Below, in pieces: positions 549-57,870 of a stretch of DNA of 64,000 bases. A program made the position numbers and the translations under genes. The notes beneath the pieces are model-generated. The model had not been told where the DNA came from, ran no database searches, and saw only the letters and a list, made by a program, of their open reading frames with translations. The stretch comes from Deltaproteobacteria bacterium (GTDB lineage Bacteria > Myxococcota_A > UBA9160 > SMWR01). Where the stretch lies: NCBI GenBank assembly GCA_032128375.1, contig JAQBGU010000232.1, forward strand, positions 3,106 to 67,105. Reading direction: 5' to 3'. The first letter of the stretch is position 1, and every line of letters starts with the position of its first letter.

Positions 549-914
549 ATGTATGACATGTATGAAGAGCGGCGTGTCCTGATCGTCGAAGATGAGGAGC
601 GCTTGCGTTGCTACCTCGCCATGTCCCTCGAAGACTGGGGCGTACAGGTGGAGCAGGCGGGATCGTTGGCAGAAGCCCACGCCTTACTTGCGCTCCACCA
701 TTTCGACGCCGTAGTGCTCGACGTCGGGCTTCCGGACGGCGATGGGCTGACCCTCCTCGAGCATTCGCCCGCGGATCGTGCACTGGTCATCACCGCCAAC
801 CCCGATCCGGTGCGCTTCGCTACGAGTGGCGTTATGCACCACCTCACCAAGCCGATAGACCTTCCGCAGTTCGTGCGCGAGGTCCAGAGCTTGGCGAGCG
901 CGGGGTCAAAATGA
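549..914 (+). CDS. stand-alone response-regulator receiver (CheY-like)
   Basis: 121 aa. RVLIVEDEE..., acceptor context VVLDVGLPDGDG, later VITANPD and LTKP form the REC signature. The stop overlaps the next start (ATGA at 911-914). Confidence 0.85.
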   Translation: MYDMYEERRVLIVEDEERLRCYLAMSLEDWGVQVEQAGSLAEAHALLALHHFDAVVLDVGLPDGDGLTLLEHSPADRALVITANPDPVRFATSGVMHHLTKPIDLPQFVREVQSLASAGSK

Positions 915-2830
915 TGAGCCTGCGCTCGAAGCTGATCCTCTCTTTCATGGCCTTCGCCTCCCTGCTGCTGCTGGTGGGTTTGACTTCGCTCTACCTCAAC
1001 CGGGCGGTACAAGCGGATGTCGCGGACCTCCGCGCCAGTCAAGGCGTCGACTTCCGGCACATCGACATCGGCAACGTCGGGCTGGAAATCGAAGGGTTCT
1101 GGGATCCGGGCGGCAAGTTCGTGGCGGGCGATGCCCAGGTCATCCCAGTCGTACGTCGCCCGAAGCTGCGCGGGGCGATACAGGATATCGATACCAGTCG
1201 GCGAACGATTACGCTGTATGGTGTAGACATATCCGTGGGTCCGGAAACCGATTTCGTCGGCGGGCAGCGGCTAGAAGATCTGAAACTCGGCCAGCGTGTC
1301 GAGGTGAGCAGTCGTGTGACCGAAGGTCGCTGGGCAGCTCGGAAGATCAAGACCGACAACGTGAAGGCCAGCGACAAGATCAAGAGCATGGCCACTTCGG
1401 CTGAGCTCGACGGCGAAGCGCCCGAGACAATCTGGTTCGACGGCATCGAGGTGACAATCGCGCCGCAGAACAACACCTCTCCCAACGGAGCATTGCGACG
1501 CGTCGAGCTGGCTACACAGATGACCCTGTTGCTGCAGGAATGCCGTGCCGAAGCACACGGGCTCGTTGGACGTAGGCTCGTCCCGAGTGACATCGACGAT
1601 CTCTACGATCCCGACGCCGATGAAGGGCTTCCAGCGACGACCGATGAGCAGTTGGTTCGCCATGAACGGAACTTTGAATACTATCTGGAGCAATCGCAGC
1701 TGGCCGGTGGAGCAGATTCCGATGTGCTAACGCCGTTGATACATCGGATGATGGCGATGCGGGCCCCATTTCGAGAGCAGCTGATAACGCTTCAAGGGCT
1801 CGTGCGAAGCGACGCCATCGGCGCGCGCGCGTTTCTTGATCAAAGCTTCGATCCGTTCGTCCAGAACGATCTGCTGCCGATCGTGTACGCCTACCGGACA
1901 GAGGCCGAAGAAGCGCTGGCGAGCCGTCTGCAGCTCATTGCATCGCGGACCGAAACAACCACTCAGGTGGCGCTCGTGACCAGCGGCGTCGCAATCATAC
2001 TGGCCATCGTGCTCGGGGTCGCGTTGTGGAGATCGATCCGCGCGCCGATCGGTGCGTTAGTCACCGCGGCGCTGCACCTGGGTAAGGGGCATATGGAAAC
2101 ACGCGTCGATGTCCGTTCCCAAGATGAATTTGGCGTGCTCGCACGAGCCTTCAACCAGATGGCAGACGATCTCGCGACAACGACACTCTCGGTGAGCGAG
2201 AAGGAGCTGTTGCTGCGCGAGGTGCATCACCGGGTCAAGAACAACATGCAGGTGATCTCGAGTTTGTTGTCGATTCAGTCGAGCCACACCAACAACCCGC
2301 AAGTACGAGAACAGTTCGAACAGTGTCAGAGCCGCATTCGCTCGATGGCTATGATTCACGAACAACTGCACAGCGCGTCGAACCTTTCCGAACTCGACAT
2401 GAGCGCGTATCTCGAGTTGCTGACGACGCAGCTGATGCGCTCGTCGGATCGTCATGCGCGCATCACTCTCGATCTGCAGCTCGAACCTCTGGTGAGCGAC
2501 GTCGACCAGGCCGTGGCCTGCGGCTTGATCGTGAACGAACTCGTGACCAATGCGTTGAAACACGCATTTCCGGATGACAAGTCCGGCGAGATTCGTGTCT
2601 CGATGTTCCGGGACAGTCGCGGTGACCGGATTTTGTCAGTAGAAGACAATGGCTGCGGTATCCCCGAGGACATCGACATCGAGCACCTGACCGGCGCCGG
2701 TCTGCCGCTCGTAGAAAAGCTGGCGCGGCAGTTTTCCGGGCGTGTGGTGTTCGATCGCGAGGTCGGTTCGAAGGGGACTTCAGTACGGATCGTCTTTCCC
2801 GAGAGCGCATCCGGAGGCGACCCAGCATGA
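911..2830 (+). CDS. membrane sensor histidine kinase (HisKA_2/HWE-type) with periplasmic DUF5666-like domain and HAMP
   Basis: Real start is the MMSLRSKLILSF... ATG at 911; the upstream 608 extension is Arg/Pro-rich shadow. It has two TM helices and a HAMP (RSIRAPIGAL...FNQMADDL). The H-box EVHHRVKNNMQVISSLLSIQ is typical of HisKA_2. The HATPase part shows NELVTNALKHAF, DNGCGIP and GLPLVEKL. Confidence 0.85.
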   Translation: MMSLRSKLILSFMAFASLLLLVGLTSLYLNRAVQADVADLRASQGVDFRHIDIGNVGLEIEGFWDPGGKFVAGDAQVIPVVRRPKLRGAIQDIDTSRRTITLYGVDISVGPETDFVGGQRLEDLKLGQRVEVSSRVTEGRWAARKIKTDNVKASDKIKSMATSAELDGEAPETIWFDGIEVTIAPQNNTSPNGALRRVELATQMTLLLQECRAEAHGLVGRRLVPSDIDDLYDPDADEGLPATTDEQLVRHERNFEYYLEQSQLAGGADSDVLTPLIHRMMAMRAPFREQLITLQGLVRSDAIGARAFLDQSFDPFVQNDLLPIVYAYRTEAEEALASRLQLIASRTETTTQVALVTSGVAIILAIVLGVALWRSIRAPIGALVTAALHLGKGHMETRVDVRSQDEFGVLARAFNQMADDLATTTLSVSEKELLLREVHHRVKNNMQVISSLLSIQSSHTNNPQVREQFEQCQSRIRSMAMIHEQLHSASNLSELDMSAYLELLTTQLMRSSDRHARITLDLQLEPLVSDVDQAVACGLIVNELVTNALKHAFPDDKSGEIRVSMFRDSRGDRILSVEDNGCGIPEDIDIEHLTGAGLPLVEKLARQFSGRVVFDREVGSKGTSVRIVFPESASGGDPA

Positions 2831-4944
2831 CCGCACTGAGCATGAACGACCACAACATGACCGAGCGAAACATCAACGAACGGGGCATGAACAATCAGAG
2901 CATGACCGAGCGAAGGATCGAGGATCAGCGCACCAGCGAGCGGTGCATTCTCATCGTCGAAGATGAGCCCATCGTCCAGCTTCATTTGCAGCTGATCGTG
3001 GCCGAGGCGGGGCACCGCGTCAGCGCCACCGCCAGCAGCGCACAGGAGGCATTCGAAGCGGCCGACCGCGAGCCCCCGGAGCTGGTGTTGATGGACATTC
3101 AGCTACAGGGCGATCTGGACGGTATCGCCGCTGCCCGTATCTTGAGCGCCAAATACGACTGCCCAGTGATCTTCACGACGGCCCATACCGACTCGGAAAC
3201 GGTCGCACGTACCCGAGATGTCGGCCCTTCGGGGTACATCACCAAGCCGTTTACCAGCACCGATGTCCGCGCTGCCATCAACACCGCCTTCGCAAGCCAC
3301 GATCGGATGAAAGCGGCCGAAAAGCGAGAAAACTCGCTCGTTTCGATCCTTCGCACCATGGACGAAGGAGTCTTGACAACGGACGAGCAGGGCGCGATCT
3401 CGTTCTGGAACCTGCGAGCCAGCCAGCTCACTGGCTGGGAGGCCGACGATGCCATTGGCCGGGATTTGTTCGAGGTGGTGCAGTTCGCTGCCGCCGGCGA
3501 CGATGAAACATTCCGATCGGCTGCATCGTTTGCGCTCTCCAACAGGCAACCGCGGTCCATTCCGCGGGTCTCGATTGTAGGACGCGACGGGGCAGCGCGA
3601 GGCGTGGGCATCGATATCGAGCCTACGGGTGCCCACGGCCAGCAGGCCACCGGCTTGGTCGTGAGGCTTCGCGAGCGCACTGAACCGCGTCGTCCAGCAA
3701 TCACCACGGCTCCGATGAAGACGCGCTTCGGCAGCGGCACGCGGATGCTCCTGTACTCCCATGACACCTTCGGCCTCGGCCACCTGCAGCGCTGCTCCAA
3801 CATCATCCGCGCTCTACTCGCGCGCAATCCAGGGCTGTCGGTACTGCTCGTTACCGGCTCGTCTGTGGCGCATCGGTTCGAGCTGCCCGCCGGAGCCGAC
3901 TACGTGAAACTTCCGGCCGTGCGCAAGGTGGGCTCCGATCGCTACGAAGCCCGTTCGTTGGCAATGCCCGATTCTGGTGTAATGACCCTGCGCAGCAACC
4001 TGCTGTTTCGCACGGTCCGCGACTATGAGCCCGATGTTCTGCTCGTCGACCACTCGCCGGTCGGGATGAATGATGAACTGCTCCCGACGCTCGAGATGCT
4101 GCAACGCAGGGGCGGTTGCACGACCCTCCTCGGGTTGCGGGATATCATCGATGACCCGACTGCCGTCGTGAATCTCTGGAAGGAAAAACGCATTTACGAC
4201 GTCCTGCGCAACTTGTACGACCATATCCTCGTCTACGGTGCGCAGTCCGTTTACGACACGGTGTCTGCGTACGAATTTCCGGACGATCTGGCCGCAAAAA
4301 CTTCCTTTGTGCACTACGTATGCGATTCGAGGGAGCCGGACGACCCGGAACCTTTTTCACCTGGTGGTGCCGAACCGCTCGTCGCGGTCTCGATCGGCGG
4401 TGGAGATGGGGGCGCCGATGCGGTGATCGGGACCTATCTCGACATGCTCGAGCAATTCCGATCGCAGATCGACTTCCGCAGCGAGATCGTAACCGGGCCA
4501 CTCTTGCCCCTCGAAGCCCAAGAGCGATTCCGCAAGCGAGCGCTCGGGCTGCCGGTCACCATTCGCGAATTCGTCCCGTCGACGACGCCACTATTTCGCA
4601 GCGCGGACCTCGTGGTCTCGACCGGTGGCTACAACACTGTGACTCAGCTGCTCTCGCACGCGCGACGCGCCTTGATCATCCCGCGCGTTCTGCATCGCCA
4701 CGAACAGCTCATCCGCGCGCGCCACCTCGCGAAACTCGGACTCGTAGGTTGTATCCATCCGCTGGAGATCGATCCGGAGCTCATGTTCGACGCGGTTCGG
4801 TCGGCTCTCGACACCGATGAGCAGGCGCTCTCGCGCGGTCGAGAGTTGGGAATCGTTCCGCTCGATGGCGCCGATCGCGTGGCGGAATTTTGCAGCCGCC
4901 TGGAAGTTTCGGCGCGACAGAATCTGAACCGAGGTGCACAGTGA
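2827..4944 (+). CDS. REC - PAS - glycosyltransferase (GT28-C/MurG-like, COG4671-type) fusion protein
   Basis: ATGA overlap with the kinase stop. REC spans aa ~40-155 (ILIVEDEP, LVLMDIQL, FTTAHTD, YITKPF). PAS spans aa ~165-285 (ILRTMDEGVLTTDEQGAISFWN...TGW). The GT domain starts at aa ~305 (MLLYSHDTFGLGHLQRCS...LVTGS...VSTGGYNTV). The GT family assignment is from memory of the motif. Confidence 0.8.
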   Translation: MTALSMNDHNMTERNINERGMNNQSMTERRIEDQRTSERCILIVEDEPIVQLHLQLIVAEAGHRVSATASSAQEAFEAADREPPELVLMDIQLQGDLDGIAAARILSAKYDCPVIFTTAHTDSETVARTRDVGPSGYITKPFTSTDVRAAINTAFASHDRMKAAEKRENSLVSILRTMDEGVLTTDEQGAISFWNLRASQLTGWEADDAIGRDLFEVVQFAAAGDDETFRSAASFALSNRQPRSIPRVSIVGRDGAARGVGIDIEPTGAHGQQATGLVVRLRERTEPRRPAITTAPMKTRFGSGTRMLLYSHDTFGLGHLQRCSNIIRALLARNPGLSVLLVTGSSVAHRFELPAGADYVKLPAVRKVGSDRYEARSLAMPDSGVMTLRSNLLFRTVRDYEPDVLLVDHSPVGMNDELLPTLEMLQRRGGCTTLLGLRDIIDDPTAVVNLWKEKRIYDVLRNLYDHILVYGAQSVYDTVSAYEFPDDLAAKTSFVHYVCDSREPDDPEPFSPGGAEPLVAVSIGGGDGGADAVIGTYLDMLEQFRSQIDFRSEIVTGPLLPLEAQERFRKRALGLPVTIREFVPSTTPLFRSADLVVSTGGYNTVTQLLSHARRALIIPRVLHRHEQLIRARHLAKLGLVGCIHPLEIDPELMFDAVRSALDTDEQALSRGRELGIVPLDGADRVAEFCSRLEVSARQNLNRGAQ
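2840..2929 (+). repeat. 45-bp direct repeat x2 (15-aa repeat) in the N-terminal extension of the REC-PAS-GT gene
   Basis: GCATGAACgaccacaaCATGACCGAGCGAAacatc is followed by GCATGAACaatcagagCATGACCGAGCGAAggatc. It encodes SMNDHNMTERNINER / GMNNQSMTERRIEDQ. There are five in-frame ATGs in the first 26 codons. Confidence 0.7.
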
Positions 4945-4952
4945 CAGAGCCG

Positions 4953-6173
4953 ATGCGTATCGGGTACGTCGTCAAGCGGTATCCGCGTTACTCGGAGACA
5001 TTCATCGTAAACGAAGTCCTCGCCCACGAGGCTGCCGGAACGCACATCGAAATTTTCTCACTGAGGCCACCCTGCGATACGCACTTTCAGGACGTCATTG
5101 CGAGAGTCCGTGCCCCCGTCCACTACCTACCACACGCCGGACTCAAGGTGCGTGACTTCTGGGAGGCGTTGTCGCGAGCGCAAAAGCGGCTACCGGGACT
5201 CCCCGACGGACTCGAACAGGCGTGGGGAAACGACGTTACCGAGGTTCACCAGGCGGTGGAACTCGCTAACCGCGTCCACGAGCTGGGCCTCGTGCACCTT
5301 CACGCACACTTCGCCACCTCACCTGCCAGCGTTGCACGCTTGGCGGCGCGTTTCGCTGGCATCACATTCAGCTACACCGCTCACGCAAAGGACATCTTCC
5401 ACGAGGATGTCGACCCACTGGAACTCCGGACAAAACAGCGCGACGCGGCGTCCGTGATCACAGTGAGTGATTTCAACGCGCGGCACCTCCGGGAACTCGA
5501 CTCTGAATCCGCCGAGCATGTGACCCGGATCTACAATGGTCTCGATCTCGACAAATTCCAATTCGACTCACCTGCGGTGCGCCCGCTGCGGATCGCTGCA
5601 GTGGGCCGTCTGGTCGAAAAAAAGGGATTCAGCGACCTGATCGACGCTTGCTGGGAACTGGTGAACGGCGGGCTCGAGGTCGACTGTCGGATTCTTGGAG
5701 CCGGCCCCCTCGAGCCGGAACTCCGCGAACAAATCGAAAAGCTGGGGCTTGGCGCCAGAGTTGTGCTGACCGGGCCCCAACCCCAAAACATCGTCCGTGA
5801 GGAACTCCGGGCTGCCGCCGTATTCGCGGCGCCCTGTGTGGTCGCTGCCGACGGCAACCGAGATGGTCTACCCACGACCTTGCTCGAGTCGATGGCGATG
5901 GGGACGCCCTGCATCTCGACCAATGTGACTGGCATTCCGGAAATGATTCAGCATGAGCGAACGGGATTGATCGTGCCGCAGCATGACCCTACCGCACTCG
6001 CTTGTGCCATTAGGCGGCTCCTCGGTGACCCGGTCGAACGGGTCAGACTCGCGACGCAGGCGCGTCAGCTGATCGAAGAAGAATTCGACGTCGTACGCAA
6101 CACAGCGATTCAGCGCGAAATATTTCAATCGGCCTCGCGTACGGGTCGCGTTGCGGAAGGATCCGCGCACTGA
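4953..6173 (+). CDS. glycosyltransferase family 4 (WcaL-like)
   Basis: MRIGYVVKRYPRYSETFIVNEV... N-terminus. GT1-fold C-terminal motifs are VGRLVEKKG, DGLPTTLLESMAMGTPCISTNVTGIPE and E..TGLIV. An alternative GTG start at 4941 overlaps the upstream stop (GTGA). Confidence 0.8.
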   Translation: MRIGYVVKRYPRYSETFIVNEVLAHEAAGTHIEIFSLRPPCDTHFQDVIARVRAPVHYLPHAGLKVRDFWEALSRAQKRLPGLPDGLEQAWGNDVTEVHQAVELANRVHELGLVHLHAHFATSPASVARLAARFAGITFSYTAHAKDIFHEDVDPLELRTKQRDAASVITVSDFNARHLRELDSESAEHVTRIYNGLDLDKFQFDSPAVRPLRIAAVGRLVEKKGFSDLIDACWELVNGGLEVDCRILGAGPLEPELREQIEKLGLGARVVLTGPQPQNIVREELRAAAVFAAPCVVAADGNRDGLPTTLLESMAMGTPCISTNVTGIPEMIQHERTGLIVPQHDPTALACAIRRLLGDPVERVRLATQARQLIEEEFDVVRNTAIQREIFQSASRTGRVAEGSAH

Positions 6174-7360
6174 TGCGCATCGCATTCGTCTCTGCCGACC
6201 CCGGCGTTCCGATTTACGGACGCAAGGGCTGCTCGAATCACGTTCAGGAAGTGGTCCGGGCGCTCACAAGGTCGGGCGTCGAGGTCGAGATCCACAGTCC
6301 GCGATTGGAGGGCACTCCTCCTCCCGGACTTGCCGACGTGCGGACGTTTGCGCTTGCGCGCTGCGCCAAAGGCGACTCGAGCGCCCGCGAAACCGCGTTG
6401 ATCGGCGCGAATGCTCAACTCGAGATCAACCTGCAATCCCGCGACGCATACGACGCCGTGTACGAGCGACATTCGATCTGGAGCACCGCCGGCATGTCGT
6501 TCGCGCGGTCGGCTGGAATCCCAGGCATCCTCGAAGTCAACTCACCGCTGATCGAGGAGCAAGCAGCGCATCGAAGCCTCGTCCACCGAGACGTCGCCGA
6601 GAAAATGGTGGAGCAAGCGATCCAGTCTGCATCCCATCTGATCGTAGTATCGAAGGGGGTCGCGGAGTACGTCGAACGCTTCGACGTGGATCGGGATCGC
6701 ATTCATGTGCTGCCAAACGGTGTAGATACGGAACGCTTCTCACCCTGCGAGTCCCGAGGATCACCGCGCAATCAGTTCACGGTGGGCTTCGTCGGAACAC
6801 TGAAACCATGGCACGATCTGCTGACGCTGGTGCGGGCGTTCGGGTCGCTTCGAGACCGCTGCACAGAGAATGCCGAGTGCCGCCTGCTCATCGTTGGCGA
6901 TGGGCCCGAGCGCGAACGGCTGACGAGCGCCCTGGCCGACCTGGGCCTGTTGGACTCTGTCCACTTCACCGGCTCGGTGGACCCTGCGGATGTCCCACGC
7001 TGGATGGACGAGATGGACGTCGGTGTCGCGCCGTATCCCGCCGAGGGTGATTGTTATTTCTCTCCACTCAAGATCTTTGAATACATGGCAGCGGGTTTGC
7101 CGGTCGTCGCGAGCCGCATCGGACAGATCCCGGAGTTGATCGAAGATGGACAAACCGGGCTGCTGTGGCCGCCCGGCGACCATGAAGCACTTGCATCGAT
7201 CCTCGATGGACTGCGCACGGATCCCCTCCAGCGCGCGCAGCTCGGACGCCGGGCGCGGGCCAAAGCCGTGCAAGCGCACACCTGGGACAGCGTGGTCGCA
7301 AAGACTTTGCAGCTCTCCGGCCTCACTGACACGGATTCGATCCCCCGCGATGCGAACTGA
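6173..7360 (+). CDS. glycosyltransferase family 4
   Basis: MRIAFVSADPGVPIYGRKGCSNHVQE... with FVGTLKPWHD, SPLKIFEYMAAGLPVVASRIGQIPELIEDGQTGLL (E-x7-E type GT4 motif). The start overlaps the previous stop (TGATG). Confidence 0.85.
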   Translation: MRIAFVSADPGVPIYGRKGCSNHVQEVVRALTRSGVEVEIHSPRLEGTPPPGLADVRTFALARCAKGDSSARETALIGANAQLEINLQSRDAYDAVYERHSIWSTAGMSFARSAGIPGILEVNSPLIEEQAAHRSLVHRDVAEKMVEQAIQSASHLIVVSKGVAEYVERFDVDRDRIHVLPNGVDTERFSPCESRGSPRNQFTVGFVGTLKPWHDLLTLVRAFGSLRDRCTENAECRLLIVGDGPERERLTSALADLGLLDSVHFTGSVDPADVPRWMDEMDVGVAPYPAEGDCYFSPLKIFEYMAAGLPVVASRIGQIPELIEDGQTGLLWPPGDHEALASILDGLRTDPLQRAQLGRRARAKAVQAHTWDSVVAKTLQLSGLTDTDSIPRDAN

Positions 7361-11858: not shown

Positions 11859-14216
11859 ATGAATGGAAATCGATGTTGGCGGTCAATTGGCAGCTGCGCA
11901 CTTCTCGTGTCCCTTTTGCTATGTGTCGGCGGTAACACAGCGGCTGCGCCGCCCGATCATCCGGTGATTACCGAGGTGTTTCAAGAGCCTCTGGCAACAG
12001 GTGGCCCGGTGGGACGCAATCCATCAGACCCCCACCAGGAGTTCATCGAGATCTATCTCCCCCCACTTTCCGACCTCGCACCCGGCCTCAACAAGGACGC
12101 ACTGAATCTGGCGTTCTACGAGATCGACGGCGATAGCTCCAGCCCCAGCTTGACGCGTGTGAACTACCGCATCGACCTTCCCGCTTTCGACCTTGATCCA
12201 AGTAACGGTCTGACTGGCCTACCGCGACCCCCAAGTGGATTGGTCGTGCTCGGTTGGGTGGACTACGTCGGTAATCCCGCCACGGATCTGAAGGGGACTC
12301 CGGGTTCGCGGGTGGCACTGGTCAATCATGGCGTCACGTCGACTGCGGACTATACGTTCATCGCTATCAATGGCGACCAGTTTTCGGGCACGACGAACTT
12401 CCCGGTCCCGGTGGCGATCTCTCACCTGGACCTGATCTCCGATCCGGTGACTGGAAAAATCGAGCAGGGCTCCTCGGTCTACCTTCTGGTCAACCGCGAT
12501 GCACCGGGATACGCCGAAGTTTGTGGTTTTTCCGACCCTGCAGTCTGCAACGACTTCCCCAACCTGCCGGGCGGAACGATCCTCGGGGTGTCGAGCCTGT
12601 TGGACGGTTTTGCCGGCAACGACGACACCGATTTCCTCGTCGATGATCAGCCGACCGACCCAGCCGACAGTACTGTCATCGATCACGAGTTCGTTTTGCC
12701 AATAGGCGGAGCTTTCAGTCTGCTCGTCCCCCAGGTCGCCGAGGAATTCGACGGTTACCAGCGCTGGTTCTTGGACTTCGTGAAGACCACCGAAGACGGC
12801 ATCGCGGGCAATCAGGATCCCGCACTAGACGCGATGAATGGGTACCTCACCGTCTCGAATTTGGGACCGTTCGTACCGACGCCGGGATCGGTGCCCTCTT
12901 CAAACAGCCCCGCCGCTTTGCAACTGGCTCTCCCAGCCCTTCAGATGTTCGACGTCTTGACCAACACCCAGGCATTTCCAGGCCTCGTGGCCGCCAACGC
13001 GGGTGGCAATTTCGGCATCAATATCCTCGCGACACCGGGGAGTTCGAACAATCCATCCGCCATGGGGCTGTCAGCCGGCATGTCGTCTTTCGGCGCGATC
13101 GGGCAATCCGCGATCTCTCCGATCGTGGCGGTCGAGACGTTCGAAAGCACGCCAGCCGGCCACACCCAGATTGTCGGTGTGACGGTCGCAGCGACTAACG
13201 GGGCGCCGTCGGATCCGCCGCTAGTCAACCCCTTTGGCATCGCGATCGCTTTCTACACCGCGATCAATCCGACGACGGGCCTTGACGCGCTCGGGGCACC
13301 GCTGCAGGCGACGGCGTTCGTGGCCATCCAGGGCTTACCCGATCAGGCGAGTGTTGCGAACGAGTTCGCCGCCACGAGCCTGGGTCAATTGATGGCTAGC
13401 CAACTTGGAATCAGTGTTTTCGACACGCGGGGCAACGGCGCTGCGTTGGTCAATCCGGCTACCAATCTTGCGAACGGGCTGGTCTTGGGACCCATGGTCG
13501 CGACTATTCCCACAAACCCGGCGCTTTTCATCAATCCCATCGGCGCCACAGGCAGTCTCGTTTCGACCGTGCTCGGCTCCGCGGAGGTAGTTTCCGGGAA
13601 GACCACCTACAACAACAGCTTCAACGTGGCCAAAACCCTGGTCCAAGCGCGCGAATTCCCGATCCACGAGACTTCGACAACGGGCGGTTTTACCCCGACT
13701 GAGTTCATCCACTACGCCGATGCCACGGGCAAGGCTGGGGACCCCTCGAGCGGGTTGACCGGTGTGCTGACGGGCCGCAGCTTCCAATTGGCACTCATCG
13801 ACACGAATCGGTCGGTCACCGGCTTCCTCGAATCGGGTGCAACGGACGATTTTGGTCTGGTCGTCGAGGTTGGCCAAACACACCCCGGGGCCTCGGTCGT
13901 TCCCGGAGAGTTCGTCTTTCTGAGTCTGATGGGGGGGCTCGAGGGTGCCGATATCGATTCGCTCGACGTGCCGCCGTTCGGCAATCAGACAAACGTGATC
14001 TATCTGGACCTCAGTCCGCTCGACACTGTGATCGGCGTGAAGACTGTCTCGCGGCTATTTGTCGTCGATGGCAGCGGCGGCGGTGAGGTGGACGTCATGG
14101 ACGTGATCGCGCTACCGGAGCCGCACGCGGTGCTCACATTGTTGATCGGCGCAATCCTCTTGTCGCTGATGGCGCGACACCGAGGCGTGAGCGATCAGCC
14201 GGTTCACTCCAGGTAG
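11859..14216 (+). CDS. large secreted PEP-CTERM protein with N-terminal lamin-tail-domain-like segment
   Basis: Start MNGNRCWRSIGSCALLVSLLLCVGGNTAAAP (signal peptide). HPVITEVFQEP...HQEFIEIYLP resembles an LTD. C-terminus ALPEPHAVLTLLIGAILLSLMARHR is a PEP motif, TM helix and basic cluster. The rest is Gly/Ser/Thr/Asn-rich. Confidence 0.75.
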   Translation: MNGNRCWRSIGSCALLVSLLLCVGGNTAAAPPDHPVITEVFQEPLATGGPVGRNPSDPHQEFIEIYLPPLSDLAPGLNKDALNLAFYEIDGDSSSPSLTRVNYRIDLPAFDLDPSNGLTGLPRPPSGLVVLGWVDYVGNPATDLKGTPGSRVALVNHGVTSTADYTFIAINGDQFSGTTNFPVPVAISHLDLISDPVTGKIEQGSSVYLLVNRDAPGYAEVCGFSDPAVCNDFPNLPGGTILGVSSLLDGFAGNDDTDFLVDDQPTDPADSTVIDHEFVLPIGGAFSLLVPQVAEEFDGYQRWFLDFVKTTEDGIAGNQDPALDAMNGYLTVSNLGPFVPTPGSVPSSNSPAALQLALPALQMFDVLTNTQAFPGLVAANAGGNFGINILATPGSSNNPSAMGLSAGMSSFGAIGQSAISPIVAVETFESTPAGHTQIVGVTVAATNGAPSDPPLVNPFGIAIAFYTAINPTTGLDALGAPLQATAFVAIQGLPDQASVANEFAATSLGQLMASQLGISVFDTRGNGAALVNPATNLANGLVLGPMVATIPTNPALFINPIGATGSLVSTVLGSAEVVSGKTTYNNSFNVAKTLVQAREFPIHETSTTGGFTPTEFIHYADATGKAGDPSSGLTGVLTGRSFQLALIDTNRSVTGFLESGATDDFGLVVEVGQTHPGASVVPGEFVFLSLMGGLEGADIDSLDVPPFGNQTNVIYLDLSPLDTVIGVKTVSRLFVVDGSGGGEVDVMDVIALPEPHAVLTLLIGAILLSLMARHRGVSDQPVHSR

Positions 14217-16138
14217 CCGAGCGCACGCAGCTGTTCGATGCTGGATGGAGCGAGTGACTGGCGCTCCGGGCGCGCCCTTTCGTGCAGCGCCATCCGCTGG
14301 AGCCAGCTCTCGAGGCTCGCCCGGAACTCCGTGACGCGCGCCATCTCGCGGGTCGCGACGTCGACCTGCTCGGTCGGATCGCGCGCGATGTCGAAGAGCT
14401 CCTCTGTCGAAGGCGGTGCTCCCGAACAGAGCAGCCACTTTGGAGCGAACGGGTCGTTCTGCGCTGGCGTCGACGAGGGTTCGGTTTTCTCAGCCTCGGC
14501 CGACTGCTTGATGCGCGTGTCGGTTGTCACGACGACGTTCGCGTTCCCGACGTGCAACTTGACTTGTTTGTCGGAAAGCTCCTCGATCCGATCGACGATG
14601 CCCTCGATCTCATCGTCATGAGGCTCGGCACCCAGCTTCTCGAGTTTGTCTGCCTCGATCGAGCGCTGCTTTCCGGCCTTTCCTTCCACTTTGACCCATT
14701 GCCCGACCGCAAGAGTGGCGATGAGCGGCTGCCCCTCGGCCGTAAGCAGGTCCTCTCCGGCGATCACAAAGCCGTGGACGTGCAAAGTGTTCTTGCGTGC
14801 GTCGATCGACTCGATCGCACCGACGAGTTCGACGTCGTCGTCGCCCGGGTCCTTGAAGCTCAGCTTCGATGCACGCATTGTCCCGTCGCCATCAAAAACC
14901 CCCTTCGCCTTCACCCGCACACCGACTCCGAGTCCCGATACACCGATCTTTCCCTCGGCAGCGTGGCTGGAACGCGCCGCTTTGTATGTACGAACGTACT
15001 TCCAGTCACCGCGTCGGACCGAGACACGGTAAACACGCTTATGTCTTGTCTCAGCGACGATCTCGGGCTCGGCGTCGGTCGCGAGCAGCAGATTGCGTCC
15101 CTCGAGATCGGGTGGCGCCGCGACACCCGCGGTACCCAACAGCGTCGGAAACACGTCGATAAGCCGTGCCGGCTCGCTCACCCAACCCACCCGCGTCATC
15201 TTCGGGAGCCTGATCATGAGCGGGATATCGATCACTTCTCGATACAGCGTACCGCCGTGTCCAACGTGCCCGTGGTCGAGCAGTTCCTCGCCGTGGTCCG
15301 ACGTGAGCAAGACGACGGTCTGATCCAACAAATTGCGCTTTCTGAGGTTGCCGAGCAACAGACCGATCTGGTGATCGAGTTGCGCAATGGCCCCATCCTG
15401 CCGGGAGGCGAGCTCTGCGATGTCGGCGTCGGACAGCGTGATGGTTCCGTCATTGATGGAGTTGCGCAGACCCGTCCAGCTGCCGCGATCGAATACACTC
15501 CCCGGAAGCAAACCGGGAAATCGACTGCGGAAAGGCTCGTCTGGCTGAAACGGCCAATGCACGTCGAGGTAATGGAGATAGGCGAAGAAGGGCTGCTCGC
15601 GATCCTGGTCGAGGAATTCGAGGAATTTCTGGTTGATCTCGGATGCGGGCATCTCGCTCTGCTCGTACCGGTCGAAACCCTGGGAAAAACCCTGATTGGC
15701 GGCCAGGTGGGCGTTGTTTGCGAGACCGATGGTCTGGTAACCCCCAGCGCTGAATACTTCTGCGAGTGTGGTGTAGTCCTCCGCGAGGACATCGGATTCG
15801 AGGTTCCCCGCTGCCGCGTGCGCCTCGCCCTCGTACACTCCGTGCTGAATCGGGTAGAGCGAGGTGAACAGGGTTGGGATCGAGGGCTTGGTCCACGGCG
15901 ACTGCGCGAACATCTTGCGAAAGACGATGCTCTCGGCCGCGAGCGAGTCGATGTTGGGAGAGGTGGGTTTGGTGTATCCGTAGTAGCCGAGATGGTCAGA
16001 TCTGAGTGCATCGATGAGCAGCACCAGCACGTTCGGCTGATCCGCGCGCGCGCTGTGCGGCGTGATCAAGACCCATGTCGTGAGTGCAATACCGGCAAAG
16101 TAGAGGGTACACCACTGCTTCCGCACTACGTTACGCAC
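14204..16138 (-). CDS. sulfatase-like alkaline-phosphatase-superfamily enzyme (Thr-type) with inserted DUF5666-like modules
   Basis: Signal peptide, metal site LVLLIDALRSDHLGYYGY, nucleophile region SPWTKPSIPTLFTSLYP (T-x-P-S-I instead of C/S-x-P-x-R), and LTSDHGEELLDHGHVGHG. Residues ~395-545 form a repeated OB-like insertion before the terminal ELFDIARDPTEQ...LRALGYLE. GTG start at 16138 or 16126. Confidence 0.8.
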   Translation of the reverse strand: MRNVVRKQWCTLYFAGIALTTWVLITPHSARADQPNVLVLLIDALRSDHLGYYGYTKPTSPNIDSLAAESIVFRKMFAQSPWTKPSIPTLFTSLYPIQHGVYEGEAHAAAGNLESDVLAEDYTTLAEVFSAGGYQTIGLANNAHLAANQGFSQGFDRYEQSEMPASEINQKFLEFLDQDREQPFFAYLHYLDVHWPFQPDEPFRSRFPGLLPGSVFDRGSWTGLRNSINDGTITLSDADIAELASRQDGAIAQLDHQIGLLLGNLRKRNLLDQTVVLLTSDHGEELLDHGHVGHGGTLYREVIDIPLMIRLPKMTRVGWVSEPARLIDVFPTLLGTAGVAAPPDLEGRNLLLATDAEPEIVAETRHKRVYRVSVRRGDWKYVRTYKAARSSHAAEGKIGVSGLGVGVRVKAKGVFDGDGTMRASKLSFKDPGDDDVELVGAIESIDARKNTLHVHGFVIAGEDLLTAEGQPLIATLAVGQWVKVEGKAGKQRSIEADKLEKLGAEPHDDEIEGIVDRIEELSDKQVKLHVGNANVVVTTDTRIKQSAEAEKTEPSSTPAQNDPFAPKWLLCSGAPPSTEELFDIARDPTEQVDVATREMARVTEFRASLESWLQRMALHERARPERQSLAPSSIEQLRALGYLE

Positions 16139-46136: not shown

Positions 46137-47561
46137 GTGCTGTCGAAACTGCCGTCGCAGGCGGGATTGCGGGTCGGAGCGAGCAGAGCGGCGAAAAGGA
46201 CGCTGGTGCTTGTGGTCGCCTGGCTGCTGGGCTGTCGCGCCCAAGCGCCCGCTCCGACGCCGTCGCTGTTGATTCTCGTCACAGTCGATACGCTGCGGGC
46301 GGACCGGCTCGGCGCCTACGGAAGCCGACTCGGTCTGACGCCTCATCTGGATGCTCTGGCCCAGCAGAGTGTCGTGTTCACTTCCGCGTACGCGCCCGCG
46401 TCATTCACGGTCCCGTCCGTCAGCTCGCTGATGACCGGCCGCTACCCGGAAGAACTCGGGATCTGGAAGAACGAATCTGGCTTGCCCGCCTCTGTGGCAA
46501 CGCTCGCCTCCTCGCTGCGCGATCGCGGTTGGCGAACATTGGCTGTCGTCAGCAATTTCGTTCTGCGCAAGGCGTCGGGACTCGATGCCGGCTTCGACCG
46601 CTTCGACGATGCGCTCCCGCAATACGAGGTCGTGCGCAAATGGCCAGAGCGGGTCGGCAAAGATACGACCGATGCCGGGCTCGCAATGCTCGACGGCTGC
46701 GCGACCGGCATCGAGACGCGCTGTTTCCTGTGGGTACACTACCAAGATCCACACGGACCGTATACGCCCGAACCAGAACGCCGTCGACGCTTCCTGGATG
46801 CGGAACGACAGCTTCCGGATGGCGGCCGCCTGCTGCCGGCGCAACCGGGATCTATCGGACTCGGGGGAATTCCGGCCTACCAATTTGTCAGCCGAGTACA
46901 CGAAGTCGCGTTCTACCGCGCCGGCTACGACGCTGAGGTCAACGCGATGGACGAACAGGTTGGGCGTCTTCTCGAGGGCATCGAAGAGCGCGGCCTGAGC
47001 GACCGAGCGGTGCTCGTGTTCGGAGCCGATCACGGTGAATCGCTCGGTGAGAGCGACTACTGGTTCGCGCACGGCGAGCATTTGAGCGACGTGCTGGTGC
47101 GCGTGCCGCTGTTCTTCCGCGTTCCTGGAGAGTCCCCGCAGCGCCGCGACGATGTTGTTTCGTTGGTCGACCTCTATGGCACGCTCGTACGCATGCTTAC
47201 GGGTTCGCCCGCAGAGTCGAACCCGCACGGCCGCGACCTGTTCGCTGATGGCGCGTCACAACAGGCGAGTGCTCCCTACATGGCGACACTCGGTGCATCG
47301 CGTGTCCGCCGCTACGGTCTGGTCGACGCTGGATTCAAATGGATCATCAGCGAAATCGACGACGTTCCGGCAGGCAAGCTGTATCGACTCGGCGACGATG
47401 GGGCCGACCTCGCGGCGTCGAACCCGAAAATGGCTGCTCGGATGCAGGAGCGGTTGGTGGCGGTACGCGGCAAGCTCGATCGCAGTACAGCCGAGCGTCG
47501 GCCCGATCTCAGTGACGACGACCGCGAAAAGCTGCGCGCGTTGGGCTATATCGATGATTGA
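46137..47561 (+). CDS. sulfatase-like alkaline-phosphatase-superfamily lipoprotein (Thr-type)
   Basis: Lipobox VAWLLGC. LILVTVDTLRADRLGAYG. Nucleophile region ASFTVPSVSSLMTGRYP (T-x-P-S-V). FGADHGESLGESDYWFAHG. The C-terminal EKLRALGYIDD resembles the LRALGYLE end of 14204-16138. Confidence 0.8.
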   Translation: MLSKLPSQAGLRVGASRAAKRTLVLVVAWLLGCRAQAPAPTPSLLILVTVDTLRADRLGAYGSRLGLTPHLDALAQQSVVFTSAYAPASFTVPSVSSLMTGRYPEELGIWKNESGLPASVATLASSLRDRGWRTLAVVSNFVLRKASGLDAGFDRFDDALPQYEVVRKWPERVGKDTTDAGLAMLDGCATGIETRCFLWVHYQDPHGPYTPEPERRRRFLDAERQLPDGGRLLPAQPGSIGLGGIPAYQFVSRVHEVAFYRAGYDAEVNAMDEQVGRLLEGIEERGLSDRAVLVFGADHGESLGESDYWFAHGEHLSDVLVRVPLFFRVPGESPQRRDDVVSLVDLYGTLVRMLTGSPAESNPHGRDLFADGASQQASAPYMATLGASRVRRYGLVDAGFKWIISEIDDVPAGKLYRLGDDGADLAASNPKMAARMQERLVAVRGKLDRSTAERRPDLSDDDREKLRALGYIDD

Positions 47562-54973: not shown

Positions 54974-56932
54974 TCACGGCCCGGCACGCGATGTGGGTTC
55001 GCGAGCGTGGACGGATGCTTCGAGCGCGTCCAATCGTGCGCTGAGTCGGCGGACCTGCCCCTCGAGGTGTGGTGTGCCGGCGACCGCGTCTCGTGCCGTT
55101 TCGAGCGAATCGCGCGCTTCTGTCGTCCGACCGAGATTGATCCAGTTGCGCGCGATCATCACCGCCAGGCGCGGAGGCGCCGATTCCCCGAGTTCTGTTG
55201 CGACGCTCAAGTAGATCTGCTGAGCGGCTTCGGTGTCGCCCAGTGCGTTCCTTGCCTGGCCCACACAGGTTCTAAAGGTCGCGACGCCGCGCGTCGGGTG
55301 AGGTTGGCGGGCTGCGACCTGGTCGAGTGCAATCACACCCTCGTAGTCCTGCATGCCGAGTAGACTGATACAAGCGAGTTCGAACGCCGAAAGTGGGTTG
55401 AGGTAGCTGGTCTTTTGGGCTGAGGAGCCTTCCAGCGGAGGTGAGGAGCCTTCCAGCGAAGGTGAGGAGCCTTCCAGCGAAGGTGAAGAGCCTTCCAGCA
55501 GCGGCAGCAATCTCGCCGCAGCGGCTGCGAACAGTCCCCGATTGAATTCATCGAGAGCCAGAAGGTAGTGGCCTTCGCGGTAGTCGGGATCTCGCTCGAC
55601 CGCCGGCCCGAACAGCCGCGCGGTTGACTGCCAATCGGGCAATCGAATCCAAGTGCGCTGACCCAGCGCGAGCACGGTTGCGACCGACAGCCCTGCGAGC
55701 AGCGGTACGCGAAGCCGCGGGACCATGCGCGCGAACAGCGCGGGAACGCAATCGGCTAAGAGCAGCGCGGTGCCGAAACAGGAAAGATACACGTAGCGCT
55801 CGCCGGTGGCGTGGAGGTTTGGGAACAAACCGGCGGTGGGAACGAACGCAATCCAGATCCATACGATACCGAGCGCGCTCATCGGTCGGCGTCGAACCAG
55901 CGCGACAGCCGCCACTGCGGACCCGACCGCCAGGCTCGCGCCGAACCAGAAGCGAAGGTCGGCCGGCGATCGAACGATGCGCAATACGTCGCTCGTCGTC
56001 GAGTGCAGTGGGAAAAAGGTCCAACCCAACGCTGCTGGCCAGTTCGCGACTGATGTCGCGATTTGCGCCGCGTAGTTTCCGCCGATCGGCGGCAGGGGTG
56101 GAAGACCGCCCACGATTGCAGCCCGCCAGACCGTCATGTAGACAACGCTGATCGAAATATGTGCGGCCGCGATCGCGATCGCGCTTCGGGTGTCGATCTT
56201 GCGAGCGGCTGTATGTTGGGCTGCGATCAGGCATGCGACCAACAGGATCGGTTCGACGGCCGCGCGCTCCTTGGAAAGCAGCGCGGCGACCAGCGCGACA
56301 ATCGAGCTGATTGCGAATCCCGCCACCCGCATGGGGCCCGCGGACGAAGTGCTGTGGATTCCGAGCCAGATAGCGGCGATCGAAAACAGTGCGCACAGAG
56401 TTCCGGAAACACCCGAGATCCACGTCGTCGTCTCGATTGCGACCGGGTGTGCCGCCATGAACAGCGCGGCAAAAGAGGCCGCCGATACGTTTCCGGTCAG
56501 TGTCAAAGCCAAAACGCCGAAGGCGGCAACACAAAGCGCTCCGGCGAGTATCGTTAGGCTGCGATACGCGCGCGGGGTGTCACCGAGCCACTGTGTCGTC
56601 AGACTCAGTAGCGCAACCTGCAGTGGCCGGTAATACGGTTGTGTTGCGCCCGCGCCACGAAAAGCGATGCGGTGCAGGGGCTCACCGAACGAAGCGACAA
56701 TTTCGCCCGCGGGCCGAATCATCGATTTTTGTCCGATTGCCGAGATATCGGTCCAGACGAACGGATAGTCGAGAGAACGCGATTGCAACAATGCGAACAA
56801 GATGGCCGGCAGCACCGCGACACAGGCCAGCGCGGTACGCCCGCGGCGAATTCCACCGGCGGCAGCGGTGTCTAGACTGGGAATCGAGCCCACGCTGGCA
56901 GTTTGTCTGCATGCGACCGGCTTGTCCACCAA
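54974..56932 (-). CDS. TMTC/PMT-like polytopic membrane protein with C-terminal TPR domain
   Basis: N-terminal DYPFVWTDISAIGQ...YYRPLQV (DUF1736/PMT_2-like). About 10 TM helices. C-terminal TPR-like helices. Internal (LEGSSPS)x4. Confidence 0.7.
   Translation of the reverse strand: MVDKPVACRQTASVGSIPSLDTAAAGGIRRGRTALACVAVLPAILFALLQSRSLDYPFVWTDISAIGQKSMIRPAGEIVASFGEPLHRIAFRGAGATQPYYRPLQVALLSLTTQWLGDTPRAYRSLTILAGALCVAAFGVLALTLTGNVSAASFAALFMAAHPVAIETTTWISGVSGTLCALFSIAAIWLGIHSTSSAGPMRVAGFAISSIVALVAALLSKERAAVEPILLVACLIAAQHTAARKIDTRSAIAIAAAHISISVVYMTVWRAAIVGGLPPLPPIGGNYAAQIATSVANWPAALGWTFFPLHSTTSDVLRIVRSPADLRFWFGASLAVGSAVAAVALVRRRPMSALGIVWIWIAFVPTAGLFPNLHATGERYVYLSCFGTALLLADCVPALFARMVPRLRVPLLAGLSVATVLALGQRTWIRLPDWQSTARLFGPAVERDPDYREGHYLLALDEFNRGLFAAAAARLLPLLEGSSPSLEGSSPSLEGSSPPLEGSSAQKTSYLNPLSAFELACISLLGMQDYEGVIALDQVAARQPHPTRGVATFRTCVGQARNALGDTEAAQQIYLSVATELGESAPPRLAVMIARNWINLGRTTEARDSLETARDAVAGTPHLEGQVRRLSARLDALEASVHAREPTSRAGP
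55421..55504. repeat. 21-bp tandem repeat x4 inside the TMTC-like gene
   Basis: TGAGGAGCCTTCCAGCG(G/A)AGG x3 plus a degenerate fourth copy. In-frame heptad LEGSSPS on the minus strand. Confidence 0.85.
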
Positions 56933-57142: not shown

Positions 57143-57715
57143 CTAGAAACGCGCAGCCGGCTCGGGAATCGGGCAGTAGGCACCCTCCGAGAAGCCATGG
57201 GCGGGGATCTCCAGCGCGTGATTCAATCGCGCCAGGTAGTTCTCCCAAGCGATGGCCGCGCTCAATTCCACCAGCTGCTTGGCGTTGAATTCCTTCTTGA
57301 GTGTTTCGAACAACTCGTCTGGGACATTCACCGATGTCTGTGTCATCTCTTCGGCGTACTCGATCACGGATTTTTCGAGCGCCGTCAGTACGCCGCTTTC
57401 ACGGTAGTTCGGGAGATCGCGCAATTGTTGGTCAGTGACGCCGTGTTTTCTGCCGACGGCAGAACCGATGTCAATTCAGAAGTGACAGCCGACGAGCAAC
57501 GCAACCTTGATGGTCGCGAGTGCCTTCAGGTCTGCGGGCACACTCGACGCACGTTCGCTGATCATGTTGTACGTGCCCATTGCGGCCAGTACGCCGGAGT
57601 GGTGACCGATCACGCGAAGCGGTTCCGTCTCGGCTCCCAGGGTTCTCATCGAAATGAACCGGGACAGTCGATAGAACCAACCCGCCTGTTTTCCGACACC
57701 TTCGATTCGCGTCAT
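57143..57715 (-). CDS. AhpD/carboxymuconolactone-decarboxylase-family protein with in-frame UGA (putative selenocysteine, C-x-x-U)
   Basis: Track ORFs 57476-57817 and 57143-57424 are one frame interrupted only by TGA at 57476-57478: ...KVALLVGCHF[TGA]IDIGSAVGRKHGVTDQQLRDLPNYRESGVLT... In this family the motif is G-C-x-x-C-(I/V)-D-(F/I)-G, so the TGA replaces the second Cys. Start at MTRIEGV (57715). Confidence 0.65.
57448..57464 (-). other. SECIS-like hairpin downstream of the in-frame UGA
   Basis: mRNA reads UGA-AUUGACAUCGG-UUCUGCC-GUC-GGCAGAA. This is a 7-bp perfect stem (or 6 bp with a CGUCG loop) starting 11 nt after the UGA, with GU in the loop. Confidence 0.5.
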
Positions 57716-57870
57716 CGCAATTTCCTTGTCTGATATGGGGTCCGTTGAAAGGTCTGTTGTCGGCCGTTTGGTGGACGCCGTTTTTTGAGGTCGCGCGACC
57801 GCTTTGAGCGAGCGCACAGCACGAGTCTACTGATCACGGGCCGAGTTCTCATCGGAGCCAATTCCGGCGT

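Follow-up and report, generated by a model that had tools for sequence, protein, structure and literature searches.

In a 64,000-nt stretch of DNA from Deltaproteobacteria bacterium (hereafter the window; NCBI GenBank assembly GCA_032128375.1, contig JAQBGU010000232.1), a minus-strand gene of the CMD/AhpD superfamily is interrupted by an in-frame TGA at 57478..57476. The locus thus raises the question of whether this triplet marks a broken gene, is recoded in some other way, or is read as selenocysteine (Sec). From the comparison of sequences described below, we consider it very probable that the UGA is a genuine Sec codon and that the two halves form one intact gene.

On the minus strand, the frame 57715..57143 was found to be continuous apart from this single internal stop, and the peptide around it read ...LVGCHF-[TGA]-IDIGSAVGRKHG.... 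Translation of 57143-57817 on the same strand gave ...KVALLVGCHF*IDIGSAVGRKHGVTDQQLRDLPNYRE..., and with a longer upstream context KALATIKVALLVGCHF*IDIGSAVGRKHGVTDQQLRDLPNYRE. Neither a second stop nor a frameshift was present in either half, and the halves aligned end to end with full-length homologues. A preliminary description of this DNA had joined two open reading frames (ORFs) across the TGA, had seen no other lesion and had expected a product of ~21 kDa; the translation and the alignments agreed with it on each point, the product being 190 residues long with the UGA codon counted (~21 kDa). The complete coding sequence lies at 57143..57715 (minus strand), with the start codon ATG at 57715..57713, the Sec codon as codon 80 and the stop codon TAG at 57145..57143.

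The position of the start codon was settled by the orthologues. Because all full-length homologues begin with M-[TA]-R-I-E-G, which corresponds to ATG 57715..57713 in the window, the gene start was placed at 57715. The 5′ limit adopted in the preliminary description, a GTG at 57817, turned out to be an artefact of ORF calling: the extension it adds (57716..57817, minus strand) was found in no orthologue, the alignments begin at ATG 57715, and the extra segment is probably an untranslated leader outside the protein. A putative Shine-Dalgarno-like AAGGA was read at 57723..57727 (minus strand), 7 nt upstream of the ATG.

To follow the interrupted codon across species, a DNA-level survey was made of the 80 best loci from one-genome-per-species contigs. 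At this column, TGA was found in 64 loci, TGC in 15 and TCA in one, so that Sec-type and Cys-type codons alternate among the orthologues, which the preliminary description had proposed as a check. The 64 TGA loci came from Acidobacteriota (Bryobacterales, Terriglobia, Pyrinomonadaceae), Verrucomicrobiota (Opitutales, Terrimicrobium), Myxococcota, Planctomycetota, Binatia, Spirochaetales and Marinimicrobia; the 15 TGC loci were mostly from Actinomycetota (Rubrobacter, Solirubrobacter and Thermoleophilia types). In the window, the TGA at 57476..57478 (minus strand) is preceded by the codon of Cys77 (57485..57487, minus strand), the first residue of a C-H-F-U redox motif and a Cys in all aligned full-length members, and the UGA was accordingly numbered U80. 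The single TCA (Ser) locus, L081:3001-3546 (JBGPJC010000022.1) of a Terriglobia metagenome-assembled genome (MAG), carries this codon near 3220 and retains a complete hairpin, GUCUGCC-GUC-GGCAGAC, of the kind described below; either the codon changed from TGA to TCA very recently, which would probably inactivate the redox site, or it stems from a mistake in assembly or polishing.

A protein-level search returned the same two kinds of sequence. Full-length homologues of ~190-200 aa, 40-55% identical, read G-C-x-F-C-I-D-I-G-S, while dozens of shorter entries (104-123 aa, 55-67% identical) started 'MDIGSAVGR...'. These fragments proved to be gene calls opening on the ATC or ATT codon directly past a stop at this column. 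A near-identical contig in the public databases has the window gene itself split into calls of 79 aa and 93 aa, because gene callers treat the TGA as a stop.

Such split calls are what would be expected of a pseudogene, in which a TGC- or TGT-to-TGA nonsense mutation had inactivated a Cys-type CMD gene and left the two ORFs as decaying remnants; the lack of Sec machinery genes in the part of the genome that was searched points the same way. Against this stands the presence of the same TGA in 64 of 80 orthologues across several phyla. A sequencing error as the source of the TGA was also rejected, since the TGA recurs in 64 independent assemblies and the NCBI record does not differ from the window within the gene. 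That record, contig JAQBGZ010000144.1 (GCA_032128195.1), is identical to the window throughout the gene. In the 31 kb compared, the two differ at 8 single bases (3594, 14096-14097, 53218, 56978, 62323, 63278 and 63294), none of them within 57143-57817, and a 12-nt coordinate offset between the ends arises somewhere in 14945-47870; they are probably two near-identical assemblies of one population.

Purifying selection was then seen to continue past the TGA. The closest orthologue, L002 from an uncultured Opitutales MAG, is 67% identical and has the unusual GCHF-U motif in common with the window protein; its surroundings are also shared, with an HtrA-like protease just upstream 67% identical and the next ORF 52% identical, and by this synteny the source organism was judged to be probably a related verrucomicrobium. 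Relative to L002, the ratio of nonsynonymous to synonymous substitution (dN/dS) was 0.13 in the 79 codons that precede the UGA and 0.17 in the 111 codons that follow it, with dS >1, and therefore the downstream half has been translated and selected since the split from the L002 lineage. The invariant residues of the family, Asp82, Gly84, Glu158, Asn159, Arg163 and Cys181, are all intact in the window protein. With one and the same TGA spread over several phyla, no second lesion, a low dN/dS downstream and all the downstream invariant residues kept, together with the rare codons described next, which preserve a hairpin particular to the TGA forms, we regard the pseudogene as highly improbable, and the reading as a Sec codon, which the preliminary description had preferred to a pseudogene, is backed by the same evidence.

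The genuine Sec codon would require a signal in the mRNA. In the Escherichia coli fdhF type of selenocysteine insertion sequence (SECIS), a hairpin lies within the coding sequence directly 3′ of the UGA, its SelB-binding apical part starts ~11 nt past the UGA, and its apical loop has G and U. In the window, the mRNA past the TGA consists of 11 nt (AUUGACAUCGG, 57475..57465), UUCUGCC (57464..57458), GUC (57457..57455) and GGCAGAA (57454..57448), exactly the perfect 7-bp stem with GU in the loop that had been described before. The candidate SECIS-type hairpin (57448..57464, minus strand) starts 11 nt past the UGA and its loop begins 18 nt past it, with G first; this spacing also presumably fits the minimal fdhF element.

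The hairpin proved to be constrained at the RNA level and not only through the protein. It covers the peptide G-S-A-V-G-R, encoded in the TGA loci as GGN-TCT-GCC-GTN-GGC-AGA. Among the 57 TGA loci first scored, the hairpin Ser codon was TCT in 55, compared with none of 10 Cys loci, and TCT makes up 10% of the Ser codons elsewhere in the same genes. Likewise, the hairpin Arg codon was AGA or AGG in 56 of these 57 and in 0/10 Cys loci, with AGA at 5% of Arg codons elsewhere. In an alignment of 58 sequences, the 7-bp helix was paired at 92.4%, the loop G and U were invariant, and the closing pair covaried (C-G 16, U-A 14, G-C 5). When stems were scored directly, an unbroken stem of 5 bp or more was present in 55/65 TGA forms and in just 1/15 Cys forms (Fisher p = 1.7e-8). 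Eight of the TGA forms without such a stem had GCG, GCU or AGC closing the loop (G-G, U-G or C-A), so that this pair alone was lost or weakened, with the stem otherwise intact and a loop of 5 nt. Even in locus L077, in which the residues differ (GAAVGLR), a G+C-rich hairpin with a GUG loop still forms.

The element nevertheless differs from the fdhF SECIS: it is shorter, with 6-7 bp and a 3-nt loop (5-nt when the closing pair is lost), and neither a conserved bulged U nor a conserved lower stem was seen here. A longer lower stem, predicted for the window sequence (columns 6-13 with 36-43), was considered and dropped, being 67% paired across the orthologues.

The same data bear on a further explanation, that the UGA is recoded but not as Sec, whether by a variant code (Trp or Gly), by near-cognate read-through, or as a deliberate stop yielding two polypeptides. 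In its favor, the JGI metagenome entries P0002 and P0056 give 'GCPFWIDIGS', with the TGA translated as Trp. However, the homologous residue is the Cys of a CxxC redox motif, which makes a classic Sec/Cys pair, and the TGA-bearing genomes belong to phyla that we take to use the standard code. At SECIS distance, a hairpin whose small apical loop holds G and U is conserved with TGA only. As for separate polypeptides, the next in-frame start, TTG 57424, would delete the invariant IDIGSAVGR segment. Taken together, recoding to anything other than Sec appears very unlikely. Entry P0056 also seems to be fused to a PF04075 deazaflavin-dependent nitroreductase domain, with the junction '...NQLGW-KMSAS...'; this fusion is probably an artefact of calling TGA as Trp, and the junction suggests that a true TGA stop was also read through.

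Several observations weigh against the Sec codon and its SECIS, or against what has been said of the protein, and are set out together here. As a single sequence, the fold was unremarkable: over 61 nt, RNAfold gave -16.1 kcal/mol with z = -1.27, and 16 of 200 shuffles were as good or better. Only the cross-genome comparison gives the hairpin its significance, folding energy alone being insufficient. A search of the whole window against Rfam at gathering thresholds returned no match, the loop is just 3 nt long, and the pairing of the longer lower stem mentioned above falls on the same side. In addition, selA, selB, selD and tRNA-Sec were not found in the 64-kb window and ~12 kb of flanking contig; since this scope amounts to roughly 76 kb of a multi-megabase genome, the negative says little. 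Within it, Pfam scans found no SelA, SelB or SelD among the 30 largest window ORFs, extending the source contig by 10 kb from the flanking genes revealed no sel genes, and ARAGORN found no tRNAs, hence no tRNA-Sec, in the window or in L001. Concerning the protein, a profile alignment placed His55 of PA0269 opposite the invariant Gly84 and its Glu36 opposite an Ala, and the enzymatic function is a guess, because the relay residues are replaced and no conserved partner gene lies nearby.

With the genuine Sec codon as the favored explanation, the short hairpin (6-7 bp, loop GUN, 11 nt past the UGA) would act as a bacterial SECIS element and, by what is established of Sec insertion, would recruit SelB and Sec-tRNA(Sec) to the ribosome. 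In the finished protein, Sec80 would act as the attacking nucleophile and be linked to Cys77 through a selenenylsulfide, and a third Cys, Cys181, may take part from a flexible tail. Its codon lies at 57173..57175 (minus strand), in the C-terminal tail GFSEGAyCPxPE, and the column is invariant in alignments A1 and A3. The protein is most likely a selenol/thiol oxidoreductase of the CMD fold.

The family to which the joined protein belongs was next assigned with profiles. The protein matched Pfam CMD (PF02627) with 33.2 bits (cutoff 23, E = 5e-8). Its best NCBIfam match was NF053654, 'YciW-related (seleno)protein' (GroundWater_YciW), at 104 bits with a cutoff of 310. The same model was the top match for all 33 of the 33 members tested, all of them weak, with a best member E-value of 2e-37, and no NCBIfam model reached its cutoff for any of these 33. 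The match to NF053654 spans the CxxU motif together with the helices that follow, and the sub-cutoff score marks the window protein as a sister and not as that equivalog. TIGR01926 (peroxidase-related enzyme) scored 24.1 bits, below its cutoff of 81.8, and NF041047 was matched by one member only. These profile scores make the window gene a sister to families that carry a selenoprotein annotation, without an equivalog model of its own. The sub-cutoff scores probably explain why the public 'MDIGSAVGR...' half-proteins are named 'alkylhydroperoxidase family enzyme'. The subfamily itself is marked by G-C-x-F-U-I-D-I-G-S-A-V-G-R, a length of ~190 aa and a C-terminal GFSEGAxCP tail.

When the family profile was compared with the PDB, the matches were PA0269 (1e-19), Atu0492 (2e-19), the debrominase Bmp8 (3e-16) and D. 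radiodurans AhpD (3e-6). The fold was modelled on a Cys homologue, P0001, which is 55% identical to the window protein. The AlphaFold2 model was all-helical with a predicted local distance difference test score (pLDDT) of 91.9, and it showed the CMD fold: comparison with Bmp8, DrAhpD, PA0269 and SpAhpD gave a Foldseek probability of 1.00 and template modelling (TM) scores of 0.64-0.92, and with Bmp8, DrAhpD and PA0269 TM scores of 0.66-0.89. The C-terminal tail bearing Cys181 had low pLDDT in this model, and in the window protein the tail may be mobile.

Proteins of this general type have been described before, as the preliminary description had rightly stated. The Sargasso Sea selenoproteome of 2005 already included AhpD-like/CMD selenoproteins with C-x-x-U (PMC1088965). 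The Global Ocean Sampling (GOS) survey of 2008 counted 'AhpD-like 1' (COG2128) and 'AhpD-like 2' (pfam02627) in hundreds, the pfam02627 type being commoner in non-marine samples (PMC2398784). They are also listed in a 2022 review and in BSepDB, and a table of a 2026 review places AhpD-like selenoproteins under TIGR01926 (PMC13188914). The window protein shares the features common to these catalogued CxxU selenoproteins, namely the CMD/AhpD fold, Sec replacing the second Cys and widespread Cys homologues, and likewise a SECIS hairpin with G in a small apical loop after the UGA. That the relatives found here are soil and groundwater MAGs agrees with the non-marine abundance of the pfam02627 type. 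The window subfamily falls below the cutoffs of the NCBIfam models linked to the catalogued types, TIGR01926 and NF041047, the latter matched by the single member noted above.

Canonical AhpD (that of M. tuberculosis; PA0269, PDB 2o4d/2ijc) is all-helical with a CxxC at a helix start, as here, and the TM score with PA0269 reached 0.89 when normalised to the target. The CxxC-type redox pair of canonical AhpD is present as C77-H-F-U80. In M. tuberculosis AhpD, AhpC is attacked by the second Cys, the exposed Cys133, with Cys130 partly buried (PMC6626918). Since it is the second Cys that attacks, the view that the UGA occupies the position of a resolving Cys was not justified, and Sec80 more likely sits at the attacking position. 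In AhpD-like structures, a His four residues past the second Cys and a relay Glu have been reported to be essential or invariant (PMC3141380). The relay Glu position, at -12, is an Ala here, and this His/Glu relay is not kept in the window subfamily, which has the invariant set listed above as its own. The motif G-C-x-x-C-(I/V)-D-(F/I)-G, which had been given for the whole family, accordingly holds for the subfamily and fails as a general AhpD motif, the canonical proteins having His at +4. The C-terminal tail of the window subfamily, which PA0269 does not have, carries an invariant Cys. Canonical AhpD also differs in its setting, there being no adjacent ahpC here.

These differences leave room for a genuine selenoprotein that is not a peroxiredoxin reductase of the AhpD type, nor a peroxidase, and that would instead carry out, for example, Bmp8-like reductive dehalogenation or another reduction or detoxification of electrophiles. 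In structure, nothing matched the family model better than Bmp8 (TM 0.79/0.82), besides its profile match of 3e-16; the subfamily is without the AhpD His/Glu relay and keeps an invariant residue set of its own, and ahpC is not a neighbor. On the other hand, identity to Bmp8 is just 18%, halogenase or other pathway genes were not found nearby, and the CxxU selenoproteins catalogued so far are for the most part taken to have general redox or antioxidant roles (PMC1088965). We therefore treat such non-AhpD chemistry as a live, though less likely, alternative.

The surroundings of the gene were inspected for a functional partner. The HtrA-like protease lies on one side and a large membrane protein on the other; neither ahpC nor a peroxiredoxin gene is adjacent. 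Clustering of neighbor genes over the 80 loci revealed no conserved neighbor or partner family, and the large clusters in that analysis consisted of the gene itself and of ORFs overlapping it. The membrane protein just downstream (54974-56932, minus strand; 652 aa) had no Pfam match at E<=1e-5 and bears the tandem repeat LEGSSPS-LEGSSPS-LEGSSPP-LEGSS.

Returning to the gene as a Sec-containing member of the CMD superfamily, we may tentatively suggest a broader picture, which we hold with considerable doubt: a distinct CMD-fold subfamily, predominantly in the Sec form and not covered by curated models, would combine C-x-F-U-I-D-I-G with invariant Glu, Asn and Arg and a Cys on a mobile tail, would occur widely among Acidobacteriota, Verrucomicrobiota, Planctomycetota and Myxococcota of soil and groundwater, and would carry out selenol chemistry other than the recycling of AhpC, for example Bmp8-like reductive dehalogenation or the reduction of a specific organic hydroperoxide or electrophile. 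The protein type has been known since 2005, and this gene is an added member from a subfamily without an NCBIfam model. It changes little for the biology, AhpD/CMD CxxU proteins being among the commonest bacterial selenoprotein families described since then. Its main value lies in annotation repair, the gene being split in the public record of this genome and of dozens of others; with a profile built for the subfamily and its very uniform SECIS (NUCUGCC-GUN-GGCAGAN), selenoprotein genes would be recovered by the hundreds. A Sec-decoding trait is implied for this organism. In Acidobacteriota, Verrucomicrobiota and several further phyla most members of the subfamily are of the Sec type, and in Actinomycetota most are of the Cys type; because of this division by phylum and the lack of the AhpD proton relay, it is a reasonable candidate for biochemical work.

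More than one copy was found in some genomes. At L035:2266-3594, in a groundwater MAG of Planctomycetota, two tandem paralogues each have their own in-frame TGA and hairpin, and two Sec-type copies (L017 and L031) lie on separate contigs of one Binatia MAG; several Sec paralogues of the subfamily are thus retained in some genomes. Within the window, a scan of its whole length for TGA-joined ORF pairs with redox motifs gave no further C-x-x-U case.

The remaining large ORFs of the window that were scanned comprise histidine kinases, GT4 glycosyltransferases, sulfatases, PolA, TruD, LpxD, ABC-F and others. DUF5666 occurs both in a histidine kinase with HAMP and HisKA_2 domains (608-2830, plus strand) and in a sulfatase (14204-16138, minus strand); a second sulfatase lies at 46137-47561 and a cluster of GT4 glycosyltransferases at 4890-7360. 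The sulfatases, the DUF5666 genes and the GT4 cluster fit a verrucomicrobial lifestyle based on the degradation of polysaccharides.

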